A stretch of 64,000 nt of DNA from Bacteroidales bacterium (GTDB lineage: Bacteria; Bacteroidota; Bacteroidia; Bacteroidales; P3): positions 3,483 to 67,482 of the forward strand of contig JAFVAM010000003.1 in assembly GCA_017480525.1 (NCBI GenBank), read 5' to 3'. Below are positions 3,905 to 16,064 of the stretch, one piece after another. Numbering within the stretch: the stretch's first letter is position 1; every line of letters begins with the position of its first letter. The position numbers and the translations under genes are program-made. The notes under the pieces are model-generated. The model ran no database searches. It had not been told where the DNA came from and saw nothing but the letters and a program-made list of their open reading frames with translations.

Positions 3905-3982
3905 TGGTGGTCTGTGGGAGATTCGAACTCTCGACCTCTTCCGTGTGAAGGAAGCGCTCTGAACCAACTGAGCTAATAGACC
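3905..3982 (-). tRNA. tRNA-Val (anticodon CAC), CCA encoded
   Basis: Hand-folded cloverleaf: GGTCTAT-TA-GCTC-AGTTGGTTCA-GAGC-G-CTTCC-TTCACAC-GGAAG-AGGTC-GAGAG-TTCGAAT-CTCCC-ACAGACC-A-CCA. D and T loops are canonical. There are two A.C mismatches (positions 6:67 and 50:64). Confidence 0.75.
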
Positions 3983-4870: not shown

Positions 4871-5428
4871 ATGTTGACATCGAAACCCTCGTGGGTCGCC
4901 GTGATGACCTACCCCAATGCAGAGACCCTCGTTGCGGAACACTTCCGCGACAACATCCCCGCCATAGAATACTACCTGCCCATGATTGCCGGAAAGGACA
5001 AGCGCTTCAAGAAGAACCCGCTGCAAGAAAAGCCCATGTTCCCATGCTATATCTTCGCCAGAATCAACAACAGACAGATCTACCAAACCCGGACGACCTG
5101 CGGCGTCGTCTACATCGTTTCGAGTGCCCACAGCATCATCGAGGTGCCAGAGCGCGACATCGAGGCCGTGCGCCGCTTCGAAGCCTCGCAGCGCAAGTTC
5201 CACATCCATGAGAGTTCCCTGCTGACCAAGGGTGCCGAGGCCATCGTCACAGAGGGCGAGTTTGCCGGCATGAGGGGGCGGTTGGTGAAAGGCTGCAAAG
5301 ATGGCAATTTCTGTGTGAGCATCAACGTGATGAACATGTCGTTCGTCGTGAAGCTCCGGCGCAACGAGCTTCGTCCGGCAAAAGCCGTCGACACAACGAC
5401 AGACATCGCCGACATCTATTATAAATAG
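4871..5428 (+). CDS. UpxY-family (NusG-like) transcription antiterminator
   Basis: NGN-like N-terminus (WVAVMTYPNAE...EYYLPM...PMFPCYIFAR) and a KOW-like segment (GAEAIVTEGEFAGMRGRLVK). The start is placed at MLTSKPSW; track ORF 4811 gives an alternative start. Confidence 0.7.
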   Translation: MLTSKPSWVAVMTYPNAETLVAEHFRDNIPAIEYYLPMIAGKDKRFKKNPLQEKPMFPCYIFARINNRQIYQTRTTCGVVYIVSSAHSIIEVPERDIEAVRRFEASQRKFHIHESSLLTKGAEAIVTEGEFAGMRGRLVKGCKDGNFCVSINVMNMSFVVKLRRNELRPAKAVDTTTDIADIYYK

Positions 5429-5601
5429 TCCACACCCAAACAAGGCGGCACGCATCCGTGCGTTGTCGTTCTCCTCGCCGACAGCGTCACACAGGGGCTG
5501 CGACCGCCGCAACCCTGTCGGGCACGCCCCCCTAAAAAAATGTATTCCCCCTGTGGTTTGACAAAGAAAAAACCTCGCGACGCGGGTGTCGCAAGGCTGT
5601 G

Positions 5602-5676
5602 TGATCTGCACAAGATTTGAACTTGTGACCTCTTGCCTGTCAAGCAAGCGCTCTAAACCAACTGAGCTAGCAGATC
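5602..5676 (-). tRNA. tRNA-Val (anticodon GAC)
   Basis: Perfect cloverleaf: GATCTGC-TA-GCTC-AGTTGGTTTA-GAGC-G-CTTGC-TTGACAG-GCAAG-AGGTC-ACAAG-TTCAAAT-CTTGT-GCAGATC-A. CCA is not encoded. Confidence 0.9.
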
Positions 5677-5716
5677 ATTCTTTTTCTGATTGCAATTTCT
5701 CTCTCGAAATCGAGTG

Positions 5717-5724
5717 CAAAAATA
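5717..5724 (-). promoter_or_regulatory. putative -7 promoter box (TATTTTTG) for tRNA-Val(GAC)
   Basis: TAnnTTTG match on the minus strand. It lies in the same conserved block (TCTCTCGAAATCGrGTGCAAAArTACGAA) seen next to the other tRNA-Val. Confidence 0.4.
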
Positions 5725-5767
5725 CGAACATTTTTGAAACTGACCAAATATTTTTGAAAAAAAATTG

Positions 5768-5775
5768 TATCTTTG
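5768..5775 (+). promoter_or_regulatory. putative -7 promoter box (TATCTTTG)
   Basis: TAnnTTTG match 22 nt upstream of the ATG at 5798. Confidence 0.4.
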
Positions 5776-5797
5776 CATCTCAACAGACAATGAGAAT

Positions 5798-6262
5798 ATG
5801 GCAAAGAAACTTTTAATCACACTGATTACCATGCTATTGGGAGTCTCTTCCACAATAGCACAAAGTCCCCTCAACAATGCCGCCGACAACATCGTCGGGA
5901 CCTATTCCGGCTTGCAAAACGGAGACAAATTCCGGGCAAAAATCGTAAAATTGACCAACGGGACCTATCGCGGACAGATTGTCTGGGTGGAACACGACAA
6001 GGATGCCCGAGGCAACAAAATCCTCGATGCGAAGAACCCCGACAAAAAGCTCCGCCAGACGCCTTGCGACCAGATAGTCCTCTTCTCCGGGCTGAAATAC
6101 GACGCCAAGGAACGCGAGTGGAACGGAGCCAAAATCTACGATCCCCAGCGCGGCCTGCGCGCCAAGCTGACCGTGCGTTTTGAAAAGGACGGCCGTCTGC
6201 GACTCAAAGGCTCGCTCTTCGGCATCAGCGAGAATATCTACTGGACCAAAGAAAACAATTGA
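5798..6262 (+). CDS. DUF2147 domain-containing secreted protein
   Basis: Signal peptide MAKKLLITLITMLLGVSSTIAQ. The pattern GTY...KI...G...G.I.W...P...D.KNP....R...G..I....KY......W.GG.IYDP..G resembles DUF2147 (from memory). Confidence 0.7.
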   Translation: MAKKLLITLITMLLGVSSTIAQSPLNNAADNIVGTYSGLQNGDKFRAKIVKLTNGTYRGQIVWVEHDKDARGNKILDAKNPDKKLRQTPCDQIVLFSGLKYDAKEREWNGAKIYDPQRGLRAKLTVRFEKDGRLRLKGSLFGISENIYWTKENN

Positions 6263-8372: not shown

Positions 8373-8626
8373 ACGTTGCCGCCACGCTCCACTGGCAGGG
8401 CCGTCAGGTGTCGGCACACGTGCCTGCAATGCGGAACCCAGGCACACCACTCCTGTCTCCGCAGCCATCGCAAAAAAAAACGAAAACGCCGCTCCATTGG
8501 CTCCGCCATGCCCCGGAAACAATTTTTCGGCACAAAAAATGTAACATAATCACCACACCACACCGCCACACTCACCGCAACGGCATCGTTTTCAGCCGTA
8601 TAATCCTCCTATCAACGCCAAACCAA

Positions 8627-9641: not shown

Positions 9642-9753
9642 GCAGAACGCTGGTTTTCAAAAGACTACTGTGGAGCTGTGGAAAATGAGGCACACGGCTC
9701 TTTTATGTGAGTTTGGGCGTGGTACCTTCATATCACAAGACGAATCTCACACG

Positions 9754-10260
9754 TTAATCCATTTCTTGAATAATCTGGATCGAAGGAGGCTGGTTTTGCC
9801 TGCGTTCCTTCTCGCTATAGCGGTTGCCGTGGTGGGTGACGAAGTGTGCCACAGCCTCCGGATCCAGCTTTCCGTCCTTGATCAGGCGCCATTGCACCAC
9901 AATCTTGGCCACCGATTCTGCTTTCACAATCATGCCCGGACCCTCCACCTCCGCTGTGGCATCCACGCCTTGAAAAGAGAAAACGAGATAGTCGACATTC
10001 ACGCCACCGGGGAATTCCGGCGTGGCACGTTCCTTGTCGGTGAAACTGCGCACCGACGCTGTGATCATCACAGCATCCGTCTCGTCAGTGATAAAAAACT
10101 GACAGGAAGGACTCAATATCTTGCAGCCCTCCTTTTCGATGTAGGCGACGGTGTCGCCGTTCACAACCATTGCACCGTCCTTGCTGACACTCACCTTTTT
10201 CCGCTGTGCCGTGGCACTGATGCAGACCAACAAAAGCACAACAATAAAAAACTTTTTCAT
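9754..10260 (-). CDS. hypothetical secreted protein
   Basis: 168 aa with signal peptide MKKFFIVVLLLVCISATAQ. It starts 8 nt after the upstream ORF. Composition is intermediate between the islet and the flanks. Confidence 0.6.
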   Translation of the reverse strand: MKKFFIVVLLLVCISATAQRKKVSVSKDGAMVVNGDTVAYIEKEGCKILSPSCQFFITDETDAVMITASVRSFTDKERATPEFPGGVNVDYLVFSFQGVDATAEVEGPGMIVKAESVAKIVVQWRLIKDGKLDPEAVAHFVTHHGNRYSEKERRQNQPPSIQIIQEMD

Positions 10261-10268
10261 GCTGAAAA

Positions 10269-11009
10269 TTATTTGTTATTGATTATTTCCACACTATTAC
10301 AAGAAAACAGACCTTCATATAGTTTGTAGTCGCCAACATTCTTAGGAAGACTATTCTTTATGCTCTCATAGTGACAGAAGTGCCAAGGAACAATATCTCC
10401 CTCATTTGTAACCCGCCATGAGTCGCTTATATAAAACGAGAAAGAGGCTCCAGTCTTGAAGAAAGGTTCAATGCTAAAGGATTCTGTATAAGTCTCTCCA
10501 TATTTCAGGAAAACATAATTTCCCCGGTATAGCGTCAAAATGTCTTCCATAGTGGGAACTTTGGAGGAGTCGACAAATGGTTTGTGGTCCATGAAACCAT
10601 TATCGGCCATTTCCTCTTTCCGGTATTTCATAATGGAATTAACTATCTCGGGGTGGTAATCATCTCCATCATAGTTTTTGTATAAGAAGCCACCCTTAGT
10701 TTTTATCAGCATTTCATCCGGGATAATTACAGCATAATACATCTCACCGCCAAAGGTTTTTCTTACATTTTCATTATCATGTCCACACATTTCTTTTTCA
10801 TATAATATCAAACTTTCAGTCGATGATTTCGGATAGCAATTCGTTTCTGTTAAGACTTTGGGGAAATACACATTGCCTGCCCACCTTTCATCGTGTATGT
10901 AGGTGACGTTAAGCAGATGCCTGGCCGAGTCGACAGTCATCATGATTCTGATTTGCGAATGTGCGACAACGCCATGAGCAATCAACAATAATAGGATTAT
11001 TTTTTTCAT
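10269..11009 (-). CDS. hypothetical secreted protein (possible partner or immunity protein of the upstream HExxH protein)
   Basis: 246 aa with signal peptide MKKIILLLLIAHGVVAHSQ. Its ATG overlaps the upstream stop (ATGA at 11006-11009). AT-rich. Confidence 0.6.
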   Translation of the reverse strand: MKKIILLLLIAHGVVAHSQIRIMMTVDSARHLLNVTYIHDERWAGNVYFPKVLTETNCYPKSSTESLILYEKEMCGHDNENVRKTFGGEMYYAVIIPDEMLIKTKGGFLYKNYDGDDYHPEIVNSIMKYRKEEMADNGFMDHKPFVDSSKVPTMEDILTLYRGNYVFLKYGETYTESFSIEPFFKTGASFSFYISDSWRVTNEGDIVPWHFCHYESIKNSLPKNVGDYKLYEGLFSCNSVEIINNK

Positions 11010-11647
11010 GTGTTTTCTATTTCTACAAATTCGAAATTTTCAGTCCATGGAAACTCACTATAGTTTAGGTCGTAAACGACATCGCCTAATATATTACGAG
11101 CCTCAATCATTCTGTCGCGTTCAATGGAAATGGCACTCCTGTTCCGACCGAGACAGTGTTCATATTGGAATGCCCAAAAGTCCATTGTATCAGAAAGAAG
11201 TTCAAGATTTTCATTTTCTATTATGTTTTTTTTAGAGGCAAGATACAAATACTGTGATGCGTGCAATAATTCATGCCCCATTGTATAGAACAGCATCTTT
11301 TGTGAAGGAAATGCATATTTCTTGTTAAAATAGATGGATGGTTTCCCAGTATATTTCCCTTCTTCCAATCTCGTCATGCATGTCATTGCAATACCAGAAG
11401 CACCGTTTCCTTTTTCCAAGTCGGCTTGTTTATCTGTTGGAACACTTTCAATAGTAAATATCTTGAGATTGTCTTTTTGAAACTTAGGAAACCATGTATT
11501 ACGTGCAAGAGTTAGAAAGCTATCACTTACTTCTATTTCGGTACTGTTTTTTTGTTCACCATTATTCAATAGAGGGGACAGGTTTATCGAGGGTATATTG
11601 ATAGACATGTTTGCCCATTGTTTCCTCCAAAATGTAATATTACTCAT
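11006..11647 (-). CDS. hypothetical protein with a single HExxH zinc-metallopeptidase-like motif
   Basis: 213 aa with no signal peptide. Motif MGHELLHASQY. I recognise no other family. Confidence 0.6.
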   Translation of the reverse strand: MSNITFWRKQWANMSINIPSINLSPLLNNGEQKNSTEIEVSDSFLTLARNTWFPKFQKDNLKIFTIESVPTDKQADLEKGNGASGIAMTCMTRLEEGKYTGKPSIYFNKKYAFPSQKMLFYTMGHELLHASQYLYLASKKNIIENENLELLSDTMDFWAFQYEHCLGRNRSAISIERDRMIEARNILGDVVYDLNYSEFPWTENFEFVEIENT

Positions 11648-11665
11648 AACCAGCTATTATTTGTT

Positions 11666-11707
11666 CAGTTGCAAGAAAATGGGATTAATCCCATTTTCTT
11701 GCAACTG
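11666..11707. repeat. 42-nt perfect palindrome (21+21) within the operon
   Basis: CAGTTGCAAGAAAATGGGATT/AATCCCATTTTCTTGCAACTG, read directly from the sequence. It occupies the only sizeable gap (72 nt) in the islet operon. No T-tract follows it on the coding (minus) strand. Confidence 0.9.
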
Positions 11708-11719
11708 TTGTTTGACATA

Positions 11720-13393
11720 TCATTCAGATACCTCTTCTTTAGTGTTACAACTGCACGCTCCAAATACGGACTTGTAAAGTTCCGCTTTCATTTGGGGGTC
11801 ATCCAAGCCCTCAATCAACGATATTTTTTGCACGAGCTCGAGATTCTTCAAGTTCTCGCTGACGGCGATTGCATCCTGCGCACGTTGGTTGAAGCAGTCA
11901 AGAGCTTCGCCCTGTCCCAACAATGCATCGGCAATTACGCTATCGGTTCGCAAAGTGTTGCGTTGAACATTCAAAATGACACCTGGAATATGAACAGGGG
12001 CGTGGCCATTGACTACAATAAAATCAATCCCATCGGGGTCGCAGACATAGTAATCCTCTTCGTATCCGTAGGTTTTCTTGTCAAGCGTGATATGTTTCAG
12101 GAATTGTACACCCATCCCAGTATAGTCTCGGATAACGCTGTAGCGCTGCAATATTTCTGCTTTTACAATGGCAACTTTTTCAGGGACAACCACCTCTTGC
12201 AATAGTTTGTCGATTTCTTCAATGTCAACAATCTTTATCGATTCCATGTAGCCGTTGCAATAAGCGATGCGGATGTTGGAAAGATATGTGATGCTGACAT
12301 ATTCCTGCAGGAGCTGCCGGAAAACGAAATTGAGAACACGGCTTTTGTTGATGTTCTCGATTTCGCGGACAGTTGTGTACTCCTCGCCTTCGGTAACAGT
12401 TTCTGTGGAAGTAGCGTTAATTTCCACATTTCGAGCCGAGTTGCTTTGCTCGCAATGCTTGCCGAGGGCACGATTGAGAGAACGAGTGTTTGAAGAACGG
12501 GATGATGAGTGGTCGGTGCTTACGCTGGCGGAGCATTGGGCAGCCATAAAAGAGGCGGAAGCAGAGACACTGGCGCTGACCGAAGTTTTGCTCTCGGAAG
12601 AAGCGGCGGATTCTTCCTCCATCAGATTCTCCATTTCGTCAACACTGCTTTGGCTGAAACTGTCCAAAAGATTCTCGGCTTGAGTTTTGGTGGATGTACT
12701 GCTCTTGTAAGTCTTAACAGTGATAGTGGTTTTTTCTCCTGGGAGTAATGAGATAGTTTCAAGAGTTTTGCCTGCACCGTAGTTTCCGAGGTATGAACTT
12801 GTCTTATATTCTTCAATGACAAACAAGCGAGGATGCATTACTTGGGGGTCGGGAAGAAGTTTTATCTTGGAGCCGAATCCATTAAGTTTTCCGACCATAA
12901 CCGGACGATAACGGAGATCCTTCAGGTGTTTTAGCTGAACATCGTTGAAACAAGTGTCAAGAACCGTCAGTTTGGGTTCAGACGATTCTCCTTTTTCCCC
13001 ACCAGCTATTTTATCCAGCGAAATACCAAGCAAATCGGTTTTGGAAAGGTTCAGCTCTTTGCGTACCTGATGGGGATTGAACCGAAGACCCAGGTCGTCA
13101 TTATTCAACTGGACACTTGCGTTGAAACGCCTGCCCACCTCCTCGTCTGAAACGTTGAAATAATTCTCATTTCCAGGTTTTTCCCCCTCCTTTTCTATGA
13201 ACACTTTTGAATCTGCAACAACACAGATTGTTCCATAAGTGGAAAAAGTTGTGCTTTGCGGAAGGTCATAGTCAAGCGTCGGGGCCGGAGAATTGCCAAG
13301 TGAGATAAAAGGCTTATTGGCATTACAGCTTTCTGCTTTTAGGTTTTCCTTGAGAACTTCAAGATTGCGAATTTGTTCAATTATATCTGACAT
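11720..13393 (-). CDS. hypothetical protein, 557 aa, no signal peptide
   Basis: Long AT-rich ORF with coherent composition. It has a central Ser/Thr/Ala-rich low-complexity segment (SSTSTKTQ...SESKTSVSASVSASASF...STDHSSSRSSNTRS). No recognisable domain. Confidence 0.65.
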   Translation of the reverse strand: MSDIIEQIRNLEVLKENLKAESCNANKPFISLGNSPAPTLDYDLPQSTTFSTYGTICVVADSKVFIEKEGEKPGNENYFNVSDEEVGRRFNASVQLNNDDLGLRFNPHQVRKELNLSKTDLLGISLDKIAGGEKGESSEPKLTVLDTCFNDVQLKHLKDLRYRPVMVGKLNGFGSKIKLLPDPQVMHPRLFVIEEYKTSSYLGNYGAGKTLETISLLPGEKTTITVKTYKSSTSTKTQAENLLDSFSQSSVDEMENLMEEESAASSESKTSVSASVSASASFMAAQCSASVSTDHSSSRSSNTRSLNRALGKHCEQSNSARNVEINATSTETVTEGEEYTTVREIENINKSRVLNFVFRQLLQEYVSITYLSNIRIAYCNGYMESIKIVDIEEIDKLLQEVVVPEKVAIVKAEILQRYSVIRDYTGMGVQFLKHITLDKKTYGYEEDYYVCDPDGIDFIVVNGHAPVHIPGVILNVQRNTLRTDSVIADALLGQGEALDCFNQRAQDAIAVSENLKNLELVQKISLIEGLDDPQMKAELYKSVFGACSCNTKEEVSE

Positions 13394-13418
13394 TTTTTTT
13401 TCCTTTGTTATGTTAAAC

Positions 13419-13832
13419 TTATTTTATTGCAATGCAATTATATACTTTCTTTTCTTTGTCGTAGGTAATTGTAACAGTGTATCCCGATAAAACCATCTTG
13501 TCGCACCAAGAGTAAGCGTCTTCTTGGCTGGAAGAGGAATATGTCACAACTTCCTTGGTTGCCACAGCACGAGAAGAAATGTTTTCATTAGCCACACTGA
13601 CTTCATACCCTTCTTCTGCCAATGCTAACATACAATGCAGGAAGCCAGACCATGCTTGTTCGCCAACAAGCGTTTCTTGGTGCAGAACGCCGTTGACGGA
13701 GTACTGCACCGTGTACACGGTGCCAATTTCCGTAATGGATGATTGAAGCTCTATCGGCTGTTCTTTCTGACAGCCAACTGCCATTGTACCCAGCACTGCA
13801 ATGAGTGCAATTGTTCTAAAAGTTTTATTCAT
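13419..13832 (-). CDS. hypothetical lipoprotein
   Basis: 137 aa. Signal peptide with a lipobox-like AVGC (MNKTFRTIALIAVLGTMAVGCQ). It starts 3 nt after the upstream ORF. Confidence 0.6.
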   Translation of the reverse strand: MNKTFRTIALIAVLGTMAVGCQKEQPIELQSSITEIGTVYTVQYSVNGVLHQETLVGEQAWSGFLHCMLALAEEGYEVSVANENISSRAVATKEVVTYSSSSQEDAYSWCDKMVLSGYTVTITYDKEKKVYNCIAIK

Positions 13833-13835
13833 TTT

Positions 13836-14327
13836 TTATTGCTTTAAGGAAACATTATTGTCATAACTATCCCTTAATATGGCTTTCAATTGTGATGTAT
13901 TTTCTATTGAAAAAATGCAAATCAAACGTTTGGAATATGATGTGGCCACCAAATCATTGTTTGATATGATACTGTCCATCGGTAGCGATGGATTTTTCTT
14001 GGGGACCAATTTTAGTGACAGCTGATTGGTGTCTGCATAAAAATATTCCTCGTATTCTTTTGGGATGACGGGCATATTGAAATCATGCTGAAGAACAGCC
14101 CAACCAGAGTCTCCGGCTGCCGAAAGCATAGTCATGTTCACCGCTATGCTGTCGTTGATACGTTTGTCCTTGATGAAAGTGGCCTGAATATCATCGCGAC
14201 CGACATATTTTTGATAGACTTCGCTGCATTGCTCAGCTGTAAGTGTACGGGGCCAAAGCCGGATAGCAAGTGTGCCACCGAGTATCACAACAATCAAGGC
14301 GATGGGTACGATGTGCTTTTTATTCAT
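13836..14327 (-). CDS. hypothetical N-terminally membrane-anchored protein
   Basis: 163 aa with a single N-terminal hydrophobic helix (IVPIALIVVILGGTLAI). It overlaps the upstream ORF by 4 nt. Confidence 0.55.
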   Translation of the reverse strand: MNKKHIVPIALIVVILGGTLAIRLWPRTLTAEQCSEVYQKYVGRDDIQATFIKDKRINDSIAVNMTMLSAAGDSGWAVLQHDFNMPVIPKEYEEYFYADTNQLSLKLVPKKNPSLPMDSIISNNDLVATSYSKRLICIFSIENTSQLKAILRDSYDNNVSLKQ

Positions 14328-14935
14328 TGGACGGAGGCGTTGACAATGTTTTCTATGATATGATTGGAAGAAGCAAGAAGCTTGGCGCGGTCGTCCATTC
14401 CACGGACAGACATCGACCGCCCGTCGTAGGCCGGTGTGGCGGCCACGAGGAGTATGGCGACAATGGCTGCAAGTGTAGCGACACGGGAATACTGGACGTT
14501 GAATATTGAAAATTGAACTTTCGGAAGAGAAGGTCTGGTTGGCATAGCTAAACCTATCTCTCGCTTGGCCATACGAAGCATCTCGGAGGGGGGGGTGGTC
14601 GCAACACTATGACGCAGTAGAAGGACGACCATTCGCAAACTGCTGACAACATCGTAAATAAGGATGCAGCCTATGATGATGTAAGGTATAAGATCCAGTG
14701 TATCGACCACATATCGATTAAAAAGGCATATCAACCAAACCAAAGACGCAATGCATACAACGAGACGAGTTGCAGATGTCAGGAGCATACGCCGATGGCT
14801 CGATAGTCGCCACGAATGACGGTTGATCATATCGACGGTGACGGGATTCTCTTTTACGAGATGGTCTATCCGGTCGCTTTGCAGCTGCCAGGCATCGAAA
14901 AGGTCGTCGAGTGAGTAATTGTCTTTATTGTCCAT
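14324..14935 (-). CDS. hypothetical three-TM membrane protein (anti-sigma factor by position only)
   Basis: 203 aa. It overlaps the sigma factor gene by 11 nt. It has about 60 N-terminal soluble residues and then hydrophobic helices. There is no zf-HC2 motif, so the anti-sigma role is positional inference only. Confidence 0.5.
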   Translation of the reverse strand: MDNKDNYSLDDLFDAWQLQSDRIDHLVKENPVTVDMINRHSWRLSSHRRMLLTSATRLVVCIASLVWLICLFNRYVVDTLDLIPYIIIGCILIYDVVSSLRMVVLLLRHSVATTPPSEMLRMAKREIGLAMPTRPSLPKVQFSIFNVQYSRVATLAAIVAILLVAATPAYDGRSMSVRGMDDRAKLLASSNHIIENIVNASVQ

Positions 14936-15422
14936 TTTCGTTTAATGTTTTCATTTTTTGTTTCAAACGGTTGATCCTGTGCTTTACGGCATCCTCTGTC
15001 GTTCCAAGGGTTTCTGCAATATCACGTAGAGGAACCTTGTCTATATACATAAGGATGAGCGCTTTTTCGTCTTCGTTCAACAGGTCTATCAACCAATATA
15101 ACCGCTCTAACATTTTGTTTCCTTCCGGGTTGGCAATGCATTCGCACATATAATCGCTCAGTGCAATAAACTGTGGCATACGTCGCCGAGAGCGGTACCG
15201 CATGTATGCAGCGTTCAAGGCAATGCGATAGACCCATGTGTTGGGTTTGCTCTTGTGCCGAAATCGGGGAAAACTTTCCCACAGGTTGCAGACTATTTCC
15301 TGATAGAGGTCGTTCACATTGTCGGGTTGACGATCGGTGTGCATCAGACACAGTTTCAGGATAGTGCCCTGACATTGGCCAAGCAATTCCAGGAATTCGT
15401 CTTGAAGTTTGTTCTTTGTCAT
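14925..15422 (-). CDS. RNA polymerase ECF-type sigma-70 factor
   Basis: 165 aa. Region 2-like DLYQEIVCNLWESFPRF...TWVYRIALNAAY and region 4 HTH LRDIAETLGTTEDAVKHRINRLKQK. Confidence 0.85.
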   Translation of the reverse strand: MTKNKLQDEFLELLGQCQGTILKLCLMHTDRQPDNVNDLYQEIVCNLWESFPRFRHKSKPNTWVYRIALNAAYMRYRSRRRMPQFIALSDYMCECIANPEGNKMLERLYWLIDLLNEDEKALILMYIDKVPLRDIAETLGTTEDAVKHRINRLKQKMKTLNENGQ

Positions 15423-15970
15423 ACATTATAAAGCGCCTTTTGTATGAGTCCTGGCATTTTCTTCTCTCAATATATTAGTTGCAAAAAAGTTCAAAAAGTG
15501 CCAATTGAAAAACGGAAAAAAATGAAAGATATTATTAGGACATTGTAATTCGGCCGGATGGACGTTATGTTTTTTTTAGGGGGGGTCGCGACAGAATCGC
15601 GACACACACTGAATAAGGTCAGGAGGCAAAGACAATAGCGCGAGACAACGCCCTTTATGGGGCGGACGCAAGCGTCCGCGTACGGGACAAGCCGAGGAGG
15701 CATGGCGGGGATGGAATGTACGGGCAAGGGACTAAGGGGAAGAAAATTGAAAATCGAGAATTAAAACGTTTAAATAATTAACCTTATGGTTGTTACGAAT
15801 GATCCAAAGAAGGCACATAGAACCCACGTAGAACCCACACAGAAGGGAGGGTTATAGCGGACATAAATGCCCACCCGCCAGACGAAACGGTTGCCATGAT
15901 ATGGCAACACACGGAACAAGAGAAAAAATGGCGTTAAAAAAATGGCGTTTATATATTAATGGCAAACCGA

Positions 15971-15994
15971 AAGGGTGTCCTTGCGGACACCCTT
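15971..15994 (-). terminator. putative terminator hairpin downstream of the hydrogenase operon
   Basis: AAGGGTGTCC-TTGC-GGACACCCTT, a perfect 10-bp stem lying 70 nt past the stop at 16065. The sequence that follows on the minus strand is only moderately T-rich. Confidence 0.5.
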
Positions 15995-16064
15995 TGCAGT
16001 GTGTGTGATTGGTCGGCGGACGGCAAAGCACGCTGGTTGCTTTGACAATCCGCGCCTCCTCGGC

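Follow-up and report, generated by a model that had tools for sequence, protein, structure and literature searches.

Polymorphic toxin systems (Zhang, Aravind and colleagues 2012, PMC3482391), for example those built on the MIX, FIX and RIX elements of type VI secretion (T6SS) or on the LXG element of the type VII system (T7SS), combine an N-terminal trafficking element with interchangeable toxins (Tae4, M15, YkuD/Tlde1, Ntox44). Their immunity genes lie directly downstream, their cassettes are arranged in tandem, remnants of recombination occur among them, and they are carried on horizontally transferred DNA. The same traits are found in the locus analyzed here, taken together with its relatives in other genomes. 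It is an AT-rich islet of eight genes in a 64-kb stretch of the genome of a Bacteroidales bacterium (contig JAFVAM010000003.1; "the window" refers to this whole stretch), whose fifth gene encodes a 557-aa protein that we call big. Two characters distinguish it from the described systems. The trafficking element is only a short tag (about 10-20 residues, with a Trp at its centre). The signature neighbour of the effectors is one large protein, big, which is not recognised by the libraries, and not a component of the type II, V, VI or VII secretion systems (T2, T5, T6, T7) or of Photorhabdus virulence cassettes (PVC). A search in the text of PMC3482391, which covered part of its table of secretion pathways, gave no such pathway. 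Judged from sequences, the locus together with its relatives displays every genetic trait of a polymorphic toxin/immunity system that we tested, except the association with a known export pathway, and since this association is lacking the locus is new. We consider it probable, with some reserve, that the islet is a horizontally acquired locus of interbacterial antagonism of the polymorphic toxin/immunity kind, with the undescribed big as its conserved core and as a putative pore-forming trafficking partner. The assignment to this kind is based on the combination of tags, variable toxin C-termini, immunity pairings and recombination scars.

Other described toxins are close to the locus in more limited respects. 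In binary toxins of the AB type (anthrax protective antigen with LF/EF, C2, iota) the A proteins share a common N-terminal docking element and have unrelated catalytic domains. The likeness lies only in the inferred working, one B component serving several A components: unlike them, big lacks a signal peptide; it is not similar to these toxins in sequence, nor significantly so in structure, and its targets would be bacteria and its cargo cell-wall enzymes. Toxins of the aerolysin type (aerolysin, monalysin, Cry35/Tpp, BinAB, Cry78) resemble the predicted model of big by their elongated β-sheets with very long strands, and resemble the protein by an amphipathic hairpin (about 2 x 11 residues) that is rich in Ser/Thr and whose sequence varies while its pattern is kept. 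Monalysin and the Cry/Tpp proteins are likewise not known to have a classical signal peptide. Unlike these toxins, big has additional N- and C-terminal helical domains, and its Foldseek comparisons give E-values of at least 0.006 and TM-scores of at most 0.13. Finally, BSAP (of the MACPF type), CDCL, BcpT and Fab1 are, like the inferred products of the locus, antibacterial toxins of Bacteroidales, BSAP and CDCL being pore-forming; BcpT, Fab1 and CDCL have small adjacent immunity genes, BcpT is plasmid-borne, and CDCL and BcpT kill by themselves, as secreted or lipidated proteins that undergo processing (PMC11901371). Unlike these toxins as described, big leads arrays of tagged enzymatic effectors, and it has no sequence or fold match to MACPF or CDC proteins. 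This 2025 review, which covers T6SS, BSAP, BfUbb, bacteroidetocins, BcpT, Fab1 and CDCL, holds no description of a big-type locus. Full-text literature likewise gave no description of the big family, which is absence of evidence only as the coverage is incomplete. The initial annotation of the window had presented the islet as a candidate for an undescribed system, and with no description found in libraries or literature this apparently holds.

The big family and its cassettes

A word-indexed search gave at least 768 homologs of big, and a full search with a hidden Markov model 1,530 clusters at 50% identity (726 with E <= 1e-30); in a pattern scan of one genome per species, 227 stretches were confirmed by tblastn. 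The protein, initially annotated as an orphan, is thus a member of a large family. Most members are from Bacteroidota (Bacteroidales, Chitinophagaceae, Saprospiraceae, Flavobacteriales, Sphingobacteriaceae), with relatives in Acidobacteriota, in Alpha- and Gammaproteobacteria and in one isolate of the actinomycete Spirillospora. Cultivable carriers include Chryseobacterium indologenes CI_885, Galbibacter mesophilus and Flavipsychrobacter stenotrophus. All members named in any source are called "hypothetical protein". Big has no match in Pfam, NCBIfam, PADLOC or PHROG, no model for it being present in Pfam (2025) or NCBIfam (June 2026), and an exact-protein lookup gave no match.

The neighbourhood of big was analyzed by clustering all open reading frames (ORFs) within 6 kb of it in 80 loci from several phyla (single loci are designated below by L and a number). 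Big is the only gene family conserved across these loci; the joint occurrence of all eight genes of the islet, which the initial annotation had left to be checked, is not a feature of these loci as a whole. Big is followed by one to four cassettes on the same strand, each consisting of a leaderless tagged protein, the effector, and of a small downstream protein. In 63 of 85 loci, big is followed on its own strand, at a distance of at most 300 nt, by an ORF of at least 100 aa; none of the 73 effector candidates collected was flagged for a signal peptide. The conserved unit is big plus effector/immunity cassettes.

The sequence of the tag depends on the group considered. In Bacteroidales and some others it reads M-x-N-I-(M/I)-D-(F/Y)-W-(R/K)-x-x-W; in loci of Chitinophagaceae, Sphingobacterium and Fluviicola N-I-W-G-x-x-(V/I)-L-D-S-K-D; in many loci labelled Flavobacteriales or Bacteroidia F-K-N-P-W-(G/A); and in Acidobacteriota, where two loci carry it (L024, L028), N-P-W-D. 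A Trp within residues 3-14 is present in 37 of the 60 ORFs in effector position versus 80 of the 679 other ORFs of the same loci (odds ratio 12, p = 1.5e-17). Tagged ORFs represent 63 of the 506 ORFs on the strand of big versus 5 of 244 on the opposite strand, and thirteen loci contain two to four of them. Paralogous effectors of one locus have the tag in common and not the C-terminus (four in L001, three in L017, two in L067, two in L069).

The domains found behind the tags are those of toxins. Among the 73 effector candidates we identified Tae4 (9 cases), Peptidase_M15 (3 cases), YkuD/Tlde1 and Glucosaminidase, which are all domains of interbacterial toxins acting on peptidoglycan. Tae4 is present above the Pfam cutoff behind all three tags, (F/Y)W(R/K)xxW, xNPW(G) and IWGxxxLDS. 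A shared N-terminal element combined with variable C-terminal toxin domains, as in polymorphic toxin systems, is present at these loci. The search of plasmids returned one weak match, Sinorhizobium meliloti pAK76 (L099, NZ_CP066360, 54489-57152), in which a distant big homolog is directly followed by a protein annotated in RefSeq as "polymorphic toxin type 44 domain-containing"; Ntox44 is a toxin domain in the catalogue of PMC3482391. On this conjugative plasmid the big homolog sits between the relaxase and the genes of the type IV secretion system. Apparent recombination scars were also observed. In L001 (13838-15211) the stub of an effector tag is fused in frame to an immunity-like ORF, and in L009 (3820-4071 and 5525-6031) a truncated copy of the gene sp168, which closes the module in the window, is found between two cassettes.

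The gene following each effector is small, and the gap between the two ranges mostly from -60 to +15 nt. Signal peptides and lipoboxes are enriched in this immunity position (37 of 51, versus 184 of 656 elsewhere; p = 3.5e-10 with a conservative heuristic). Some pairings recur: a secreted partner of about 155 aa accompanies Tae4 in at least 4 loci, and the effector with an HExxH motif present in the window is associated with sp246, a signal-peptide protein, or its homologs in the window, L008 and L001. Gaps, signal peptides and pairings together indicate candidate immunity genes placed immediately downstream of the toxins and co-varying with them. One protein in immunity position is of the FGE-sulfatase type, and the title of a preprint presents FGE-like proteins as T6SS immunity proteins. 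The downstream proteins would neutralise the effectors in the periplasm and so protect the producer.

The nature of the effectors also brings to mind another role for big, that of a cytoplasmic adaptor or chaperone loading tagged effectors onto a secretion machine encoded elsewhere, for example a T6SS of Bacteroidota. Tae4 and Tlde1, both present in cassettes, are classic T6SS effectors, and T6SS cargo effectors often adjoin dedicated adaptor genes, known adaptor families being DUF4123, DUF1795 and DUF2169. However, no gene besides big is a conserved neighbour in the 80 loci, secretion-system genes included, and none of the latter is annotated within 10 kb in L001, L004 and L006; no marker of a known export pathway (T2, T5, T6, T7, PVC, Rhs, others) was found associated with the locus. 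The family is moreover present in the Spirillospora isolate, and actinomycetes are not known to have a T6SS. A β-sheet-rich protein of 560 aa with an amphipathic hairpin and without a match to any Pfam family, those of adaptors included, is also unlike known adaptors. We regard this role as very unlikely.

Sequence and predicted structure of big

A confident AlphaFold2 (AF2) model of big based on 150 sequences (pLDDT 84.7, pTM 0.78) superseded a first model based on 39 sequences (pLDDT 68). The model starts with N-terminal helices and a sequence-variable helical sub-domain at about residues 60-160; its core contains very long β-strands of 21-28 residues (189-216, 354-379 and 472-492), and its C-terminus is helical. 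When both models were compared with the PDB, the top of the Foldseek list consisted mostly of β-pore-forming toxins (Cry35Ab1, Tpp80, Cry78Aa, monalysin, BinAB, leukocidins, pneumolysin), aerolysin itself being listed for the second model.

Evidence that does not depend on the model comes from the central region of big, which varies in sequence and is constantly Ser/Thr-rich (22% Ser, 10% Thr). It follows a regular pattern, i.e. a polar lead-in, a strand of about 11 residues with alternating polarity, a turn, a second strand and a polar tail (for example VKVDVSLSAKL-FK-IVSASLSAGY). Alternating windows, defined by at least 9 alternating positions out of 10, number 11.0 per protein on average in 39 family members versus 1.9 in shuffles of the same region, and their density is 0.20 in the central region versus 0.014 elsewhere in the protein (15 times). 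This pattern, that of a predicted amphipathic hairpin, is characteristic of the hairpin with which β-pore-forming toxins span the membrane. Big is probably pore-forming, and would oligomerise into a β-barrel pore. Because the structural matches are not significant, this assignment is based on the pattern and on the ranking of the toxins in the Foldseek list; as fold similarity was not established, big cannot be demonstrated to belong to any family of such toxins. The protein lacks a signal peptide. Two near-invariant cysteines (C23 and C500) and a conserved Cys-rich C-terminal motif (VFGxCCxxPQTQ) could correspond to disulfides, a lipidation site or a sorting signal.

Several other identities were considered for big and rejected. 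A Pfam scan of 39 family members at E <= 1 gave no match to aerolysin, ETX_MTX2 or Toxin_10 and no consistent family; its matches to Ig_mannosidase (9 of 39 members, best E 0.004) were judged to be noise. A profile search against PDB sequences returned only chance coiled-coil matches to geminin (E ~0.05). A string resembling a Walker A motif, G-x-Y-G-A-G-K-T, was discarded as its Lys varies (R, Q) and the segment lies within a long β-strand. No HK97-fold protein is present among the Foldseek matches listed, which leaves no support for an encapsulin/HK97 shell with cargo-loading peptides, and an identity with CDCL or MACPF proteins was rejected on Foldseek probabilities <=0.01-0.02 and no Pfam match. 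The sole significant structural match of the first model is BFVD A0A5K0U6Q4 from Yasminevirus sp. GU-2018, an uncharacterised giant-virus protein of 642 aa (E = 4.9e-8, 19% identity over 319 columns), which may be a homolog acquired from bacteria.

If big forms pores, it might also act as a stand-alone bactericidal toxin like BSAP, CDCL or BcpT; the cassettes would then be independent and merely clustered, and lipo, the lipoprotein of the islet, or sp168 would be its immunity protein. The pore-forming and diffusible toxins of Bacteroidales do have adjacent small lipoprotein immunity genes (PMC11901371), lipo is encoded 25 nt upstream of big in the window, and homologs of sp168 are also found alone, in the manner of orphan immunity genes. 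Against this, no candidate immunity gene is conserved with big across the loci, and the strict order, the common strand, the short gaps and the tag on unrelated effectors speak for a functional link between big and the cassettes. A stand-alone toxin appears clearly unlikely. Even less can be said for a gasdermin-like module of cell suicide or antiphage defence, in which a leaderless pore-former would be activated by the adjacent HExxH protease. The window does present a leaderless candidate pore-former followed by a leaderless HExxH protein, and the helices that AF2 places in the putative membrane-inserting region could refold. Across loci, however, the gene downstream of big is hypervariable and often arrayed, it usually encodes a peptidoglycan hydrolase accompanied by a secreted protein, and no protease is dedicated to this place; none of the eight proteins of the islet has a PADLOC match, and the 2.9 million viral contigs of IMG/VR contain no relative of big. 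This module is extremely improbable. Of the roles floated in the initial annotation, the antiphage one loses its ground with these last two results, and the interbacterial toxin/immunity one is backed by the comparative evidence. The stand-alone, adaptor and gasdermin-like readings fit the comparative data less well.

The islet in the window and its origin

The features of the islet are listed in Table 1. The eight ORFs, on the minus strand from 9754 to 15422, overlap by 11 nt and 4 nt (twice) or are separated by 3, 8, 25 and 72 nt, and the HELLH motif, the VGC lipobox and the signal peptides can be read in their translations. The first product is the only one with a profile match: the seven others have none in Pfam, NCBIfam, PADLOC or PHROG.

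Table 1. Position of the genes and other features of the islet in the window
Feature	Position	Strand	Remarks
Sigma-70 factor of the extracytoplasmic function (ECF) type (sigma), 165 aa, first gene of the cluster	14925..15422	-	Matches to Sigma70_r2, Sigma70_r4_2 and TIGR02937
Protein with three transmembrane (TM) segments (TM3), 203 aa, in anti-sigma position	14324..14935	-	Predicted TM segments; 11-nt overlap with the sigma gene
N-terminally anchored protein (anch), 163 aa	13836..14327	-	Restricted to the sub-lineage of the window
Lipoprotein (lipo), 137 aa, VGC lipobox	13419..13832	-	25 nt upstream of big
Big, 557 aa, leaderless	11720..13393	-	Conserved marker of the system
Perfect palindrome, 42 nt	11666..11707	-	Between the big and effector genes
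HExxH effector candidate, 213 aa, leaderless	11006..11647	-	Tag MSNITFWRKQW, HELLH motif
Immunity candidate (sp246), 246 aa, signal peptide	10269..11009	-	4-nt overlap with the effector gene
Signal-peptide protein (sp168), 168 aa, closes the module	9754..10260	-	Immunity-like; homologs at the 3' end of the module in relatives
Upstream non-coding region, presumed promoter and left border of the islet	15423..15986	-	Haplotypes diverge at about 15986

The composition of the islet is clearly distinct from that of its surroundings. In 400-nt windows, GC content is 0.35-0.51 across about 10200-15900 and 0.58-0.66 in the flanks, for a mean of 0.581 over the 64 kb. GC content at third codon positions (GC3) is 0.43 for sp246, 0.34 for the HExxH gene, 0.48 for big, 0.43 for lipo, 0.45 for anch, 0.53 for TM3 and 0.52 for sigma, with an intermediate value for sp168 (0.65); in the flanks it is 0.78 for dus and 0.82-0.85 for the hydrogenase genes hydCAB. 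A GC3 range of 0.33-0.53 (sp168 0.65) versus 0.78-0.85 is the deviant composition expected of a genomic island. The positions 9685-14111 of the window, a stretch of 4.4 kb, are 91% identical at the nucleotide level to L008, a contig of a metagenome-assembled genome of Bacteroidales (JAZNHG010000001). This block spans from within the anch gene to about 70 nt beyond the last gene, and is AT-rich within a GC-rich host in both genomes. The flanking genes differ, and between the two genomes the identity of the dus proteins reaches only 35%. Since its composition deviates and the block is 91% identical despite this distance between the dus proteins, the islet is horizontally acquired foreign DNA. 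The initial annotation is upheld in this respect, as it is for the change to AT-rich DNA at about 10260-15960 (there judged by eye), for the coordinates and packing of the eight ORFs, for the ECF sigma-70 factor as the sole recognisable product, for the 72-nt gap with a perfect palindrome and for the lack of integrase, transposase and tRNA. The islet showed no ORF for an integrase or transposase, and the tRNA scan found none in 5676-30000, the nearest being tRNA-Val at 3905 and 5601.

The cassette of the window fits the pattern of the other loci, with the HExxH protein as effector candidate, sp246 as its presumed partner and sp168 as a further immunity-like gene. The tag of the HExxH protein agrees with the (F/Y)W(R/K)xxW of paralogous effectors in L001, L009-L012, L014, L016 and L022. 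L001 contains an HExxH homolog with 30% identity, with the same tag and again followed by a homolog of sp246; a homology search of the protein database returned near-identical sequences alone, so that the effector is a near-orphan, and it has no Pfam match besides its motif. We propose that it is a tagged effector, a putative zinc metallopeptidase acting in the periplasm, with sp246 as the candidate for its cognate immunity protein. Homologs of sp168 occur at the 3' end of the module, downstream of different effectors, in L006 (35% identity), L008, L009 and L012, which makes five loci with the window; the family comprises about 50 clusters in Bacteroidales, some of which stand alone without big (L094, L096). 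Sp168 looks like an immunity or orphan-immunity gene.

The palindrome between big and the effector gene has a perfect stem of 19 bp, a loop of 4 nt and no U-tract (-32.2 kcal/mol as RNA, z = -7.25 versus shuffles), and probably acts as a hairpin within the operon, attenuating or stabilising the transcript. In L008 a hairpin of different sequence is present at the same position. As hairpins of differing sequences occupy the same gap in the two loci, the element may set the ratio of carrier (big) to cargo (effector) expression. Hairpins GAGGGTGTC...(G/C)ACCCTC were observed in two places, the big/effector gap of L008 (11685-11795) and an alternative hydC terminator described below; they may be members of a repeated family of hairpin elements present in these Bacteroidales.

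The four genes upstream of big have a much narrower distribution. Those for sigma, the protein in anti-sigma position, anch and lipo accompany big only in L008, L009, L088 and L093 and are absent from the other ~75 loci; the sigma-first order is common to the window, L008, L088 and L093, and L008 has the same order of eight genes as the window. The sigma protein is a typical ECF factor (Sigma70_r2, PF04542, 3.4e-11; Sigma70_r4_2, PF08281, 1.7e-8; TIGR02937, 6.9e-20). TM3 has no Pfam or NCBIfam match, hence no recognisable anti-sigma domain, and the protein at the corresponding place in L008 is an unrelated one of 254 aa; the position of TM3 and its 11-nt overlap with the sigma gene suggest that it may be an anti-sigma factor. 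Over its residues 26-163, anch has 73% amino-acid identity to its counterparts in L008 and L009, and its gene contains the left end (14111) of the 91% block. The homologs of lipo, which lies inside this block, are limited to L008 and L009 (89-90% amino-acid identity) and to the same-species L088 and L093. In L008, sigma is 48% identical to that of the window, and the sigma and anti-sigma-position genes, outside the shared block, have a host-like GC3 (0.72). The eight-gene module gated by sigma and anti-sigma, as initially proposed, is not supported as a conserved unit, given this distribution and the host-like sigma pair of L008: we read sigma, TM3, anch and lipo as add-ons of a sub-lineage, probably regulatory. 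By analogy with BcdI and BcpI (PMC11901371), we may speculate that lipo serves as self-protection against a pore-forming big.

The junctions of the islet vary between contigs. In the same-species contigs L088 and L093 the islet is identical and is again flanked by hydC and dus. In three other samples, contigs agree with the window as far as about 15986, just 3' of hydC, and then diverge (20-44 nt, to the contig end); in these tails (L089, L091, L092) both hairpin and sequence are different (TCAAAAGTTTTGGGGCACCCTCTTCTTGCGTTCGTGCCACGTTG). As these contigs leave the sequence of the window at this point, the left border is polymorphic in the population. Other contigs stop at 8497-8545, past dus, and the assembly breaks flanking the block of islet plus dus on both sides suggest strain-level variation there. 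In the comparison of the dus-hydC junction, called for in the initial annotation, an alternative sequence from about 15986 exists in three samples, and the islet is present at the same site in L088 and L093. A 33-mer of the alternative haplotype was absent from the metagenome contigs of JGI, and an empty site was not recovered. An exact-protein lookup of the comEC-like neighbour gave no match.

The terminator hairpin of hydC is located at about 15975-16005. Upstream of the sigma gene, within a long non-coding and A-rich region, AAAAAATGGCGTT is directly repeated in tandem (two copies, ~15923-15949), about 35 nt from the divergence point of the alternative haplotype. No Rfam family reached threshold in the islet or its 5' region, and a sigma-70 promoter scan, whose model is ill-suited to Bacteroidota, performed no better than on shuffles. 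Two features about 4 kb past dus are unrelated to the borders of the islet, the tRNA-Val genes at 3905-3982 and 5601-5676 (anticodons CAC and GAC) and a local dip of GC to 0.42 at 5400-6000. In two relatives, the module is close to mobilisation genes: in L006 (14085-16519) it adjoins a relaxase, a MobC/NikA-like protein and a Toprim primase, and in L004 (13213-16733) a DUF6371 zinc-ribbon protein, an AAA_25 protein and an HU-like protein. These neighbours suggest carriage on mobilisable elements; the copy of the window is without such genes.

Proposed mechanism and its meaning

The following mechanism may be proposed for the locus as an antagonism system. Big would oligomerise to a β-barrel pore through its Ser/Thr-rich amphipathic hairpin, recognise the N-terminal tag of the effectors and carry them across a membrane, acting like the B component of a binary toxin. 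This membrane would most economically be the outer membrane of a competing Gram-negative cell, because it is the one that periplasm-acting enzymes need to cross to reach the cell wall. Periplasmic immunity proteins would protect the producer, and the hairpin between big and the effector gene would adjust their relative expression. In the sub-lineage of the window the operon would have come to lie behind genes for an ECF sigma factor and for a membrane protein whose position suggests an anti-sigma role, tying its expression to an envelope signal. Only tentatively, as one possibility among others, do we see in the big family as a whole the B component of an antibacterial binary toxin, i.e. a secreted β-barrel translocon that docks the Trp tag and threads cell-wall enzymes through the outer membrane of competitors.

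A number of observations weigh against the antagonism reading with big as pore-forming partner. Big and the effectors have no recognisable export signal, and one relative belongs to the Spirillospora isolate (L035), which has no outer membrane to cross. AF2 renders the central region of big as helices, without a hairpin, and Foldseek gave no significant match in the PDB (best E 0.0057 with the first model, 0.015 with the second; TM-score <=0.13). The effector and immunity proteins of the window have no recognisable domains, their roles being deduced from position, tag and one conserved pairing. As for an action of the effectors confined to the periplasm, about 70% of the candidates have no Pfam domain, and no target is known for Ntox44.

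The first two of these observations would be accommodated if big acted in the producer itself, as a pore for release or export or by controlled lysis, as in colicin and pyocin release, the effectors reaching competitors by other means. With leaderless big and effectors a cytoplasmic start is the simplest, Gram-positive actinomycete relatives speak against a mechanism specific to the outer membrane, and the presumed ECF-sigma control of the window lineage could limit a costly release. Yet two membranes would have to be crossed in Bacteroidota, the invariant C23 and C500 and the Cys-rich C-terminus hint that big acts in an oxidising place outside the cytoplasm, and residues 60-160 of big are variable, as are the receptor-binding parts of secreted toxins. 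An action of big in the producer, the main alternative, seems to us unlikely.

Peptidoglycan-targeting effectors such as Tae4 and Tlde1 are regarded as cargo of the T6SS; at these loci they are found behind a different conserved partner, which has neither annotation nor a solved structural relative. If the reading of big as carrier and translocon is true, there exists a route for effectors that is independent of secretion systems, widespread in Bacteroidota and present in other phyla. Should big be a pore-forming carrier, it would represent a new bacterial mode of delivery for cell-wall toxins and a simple marker by which hundreds of new families of toxins and immunity proteins could be found in genomes, and its association with the tag would provide a modular, engineerable tag-plus-carrier pair.

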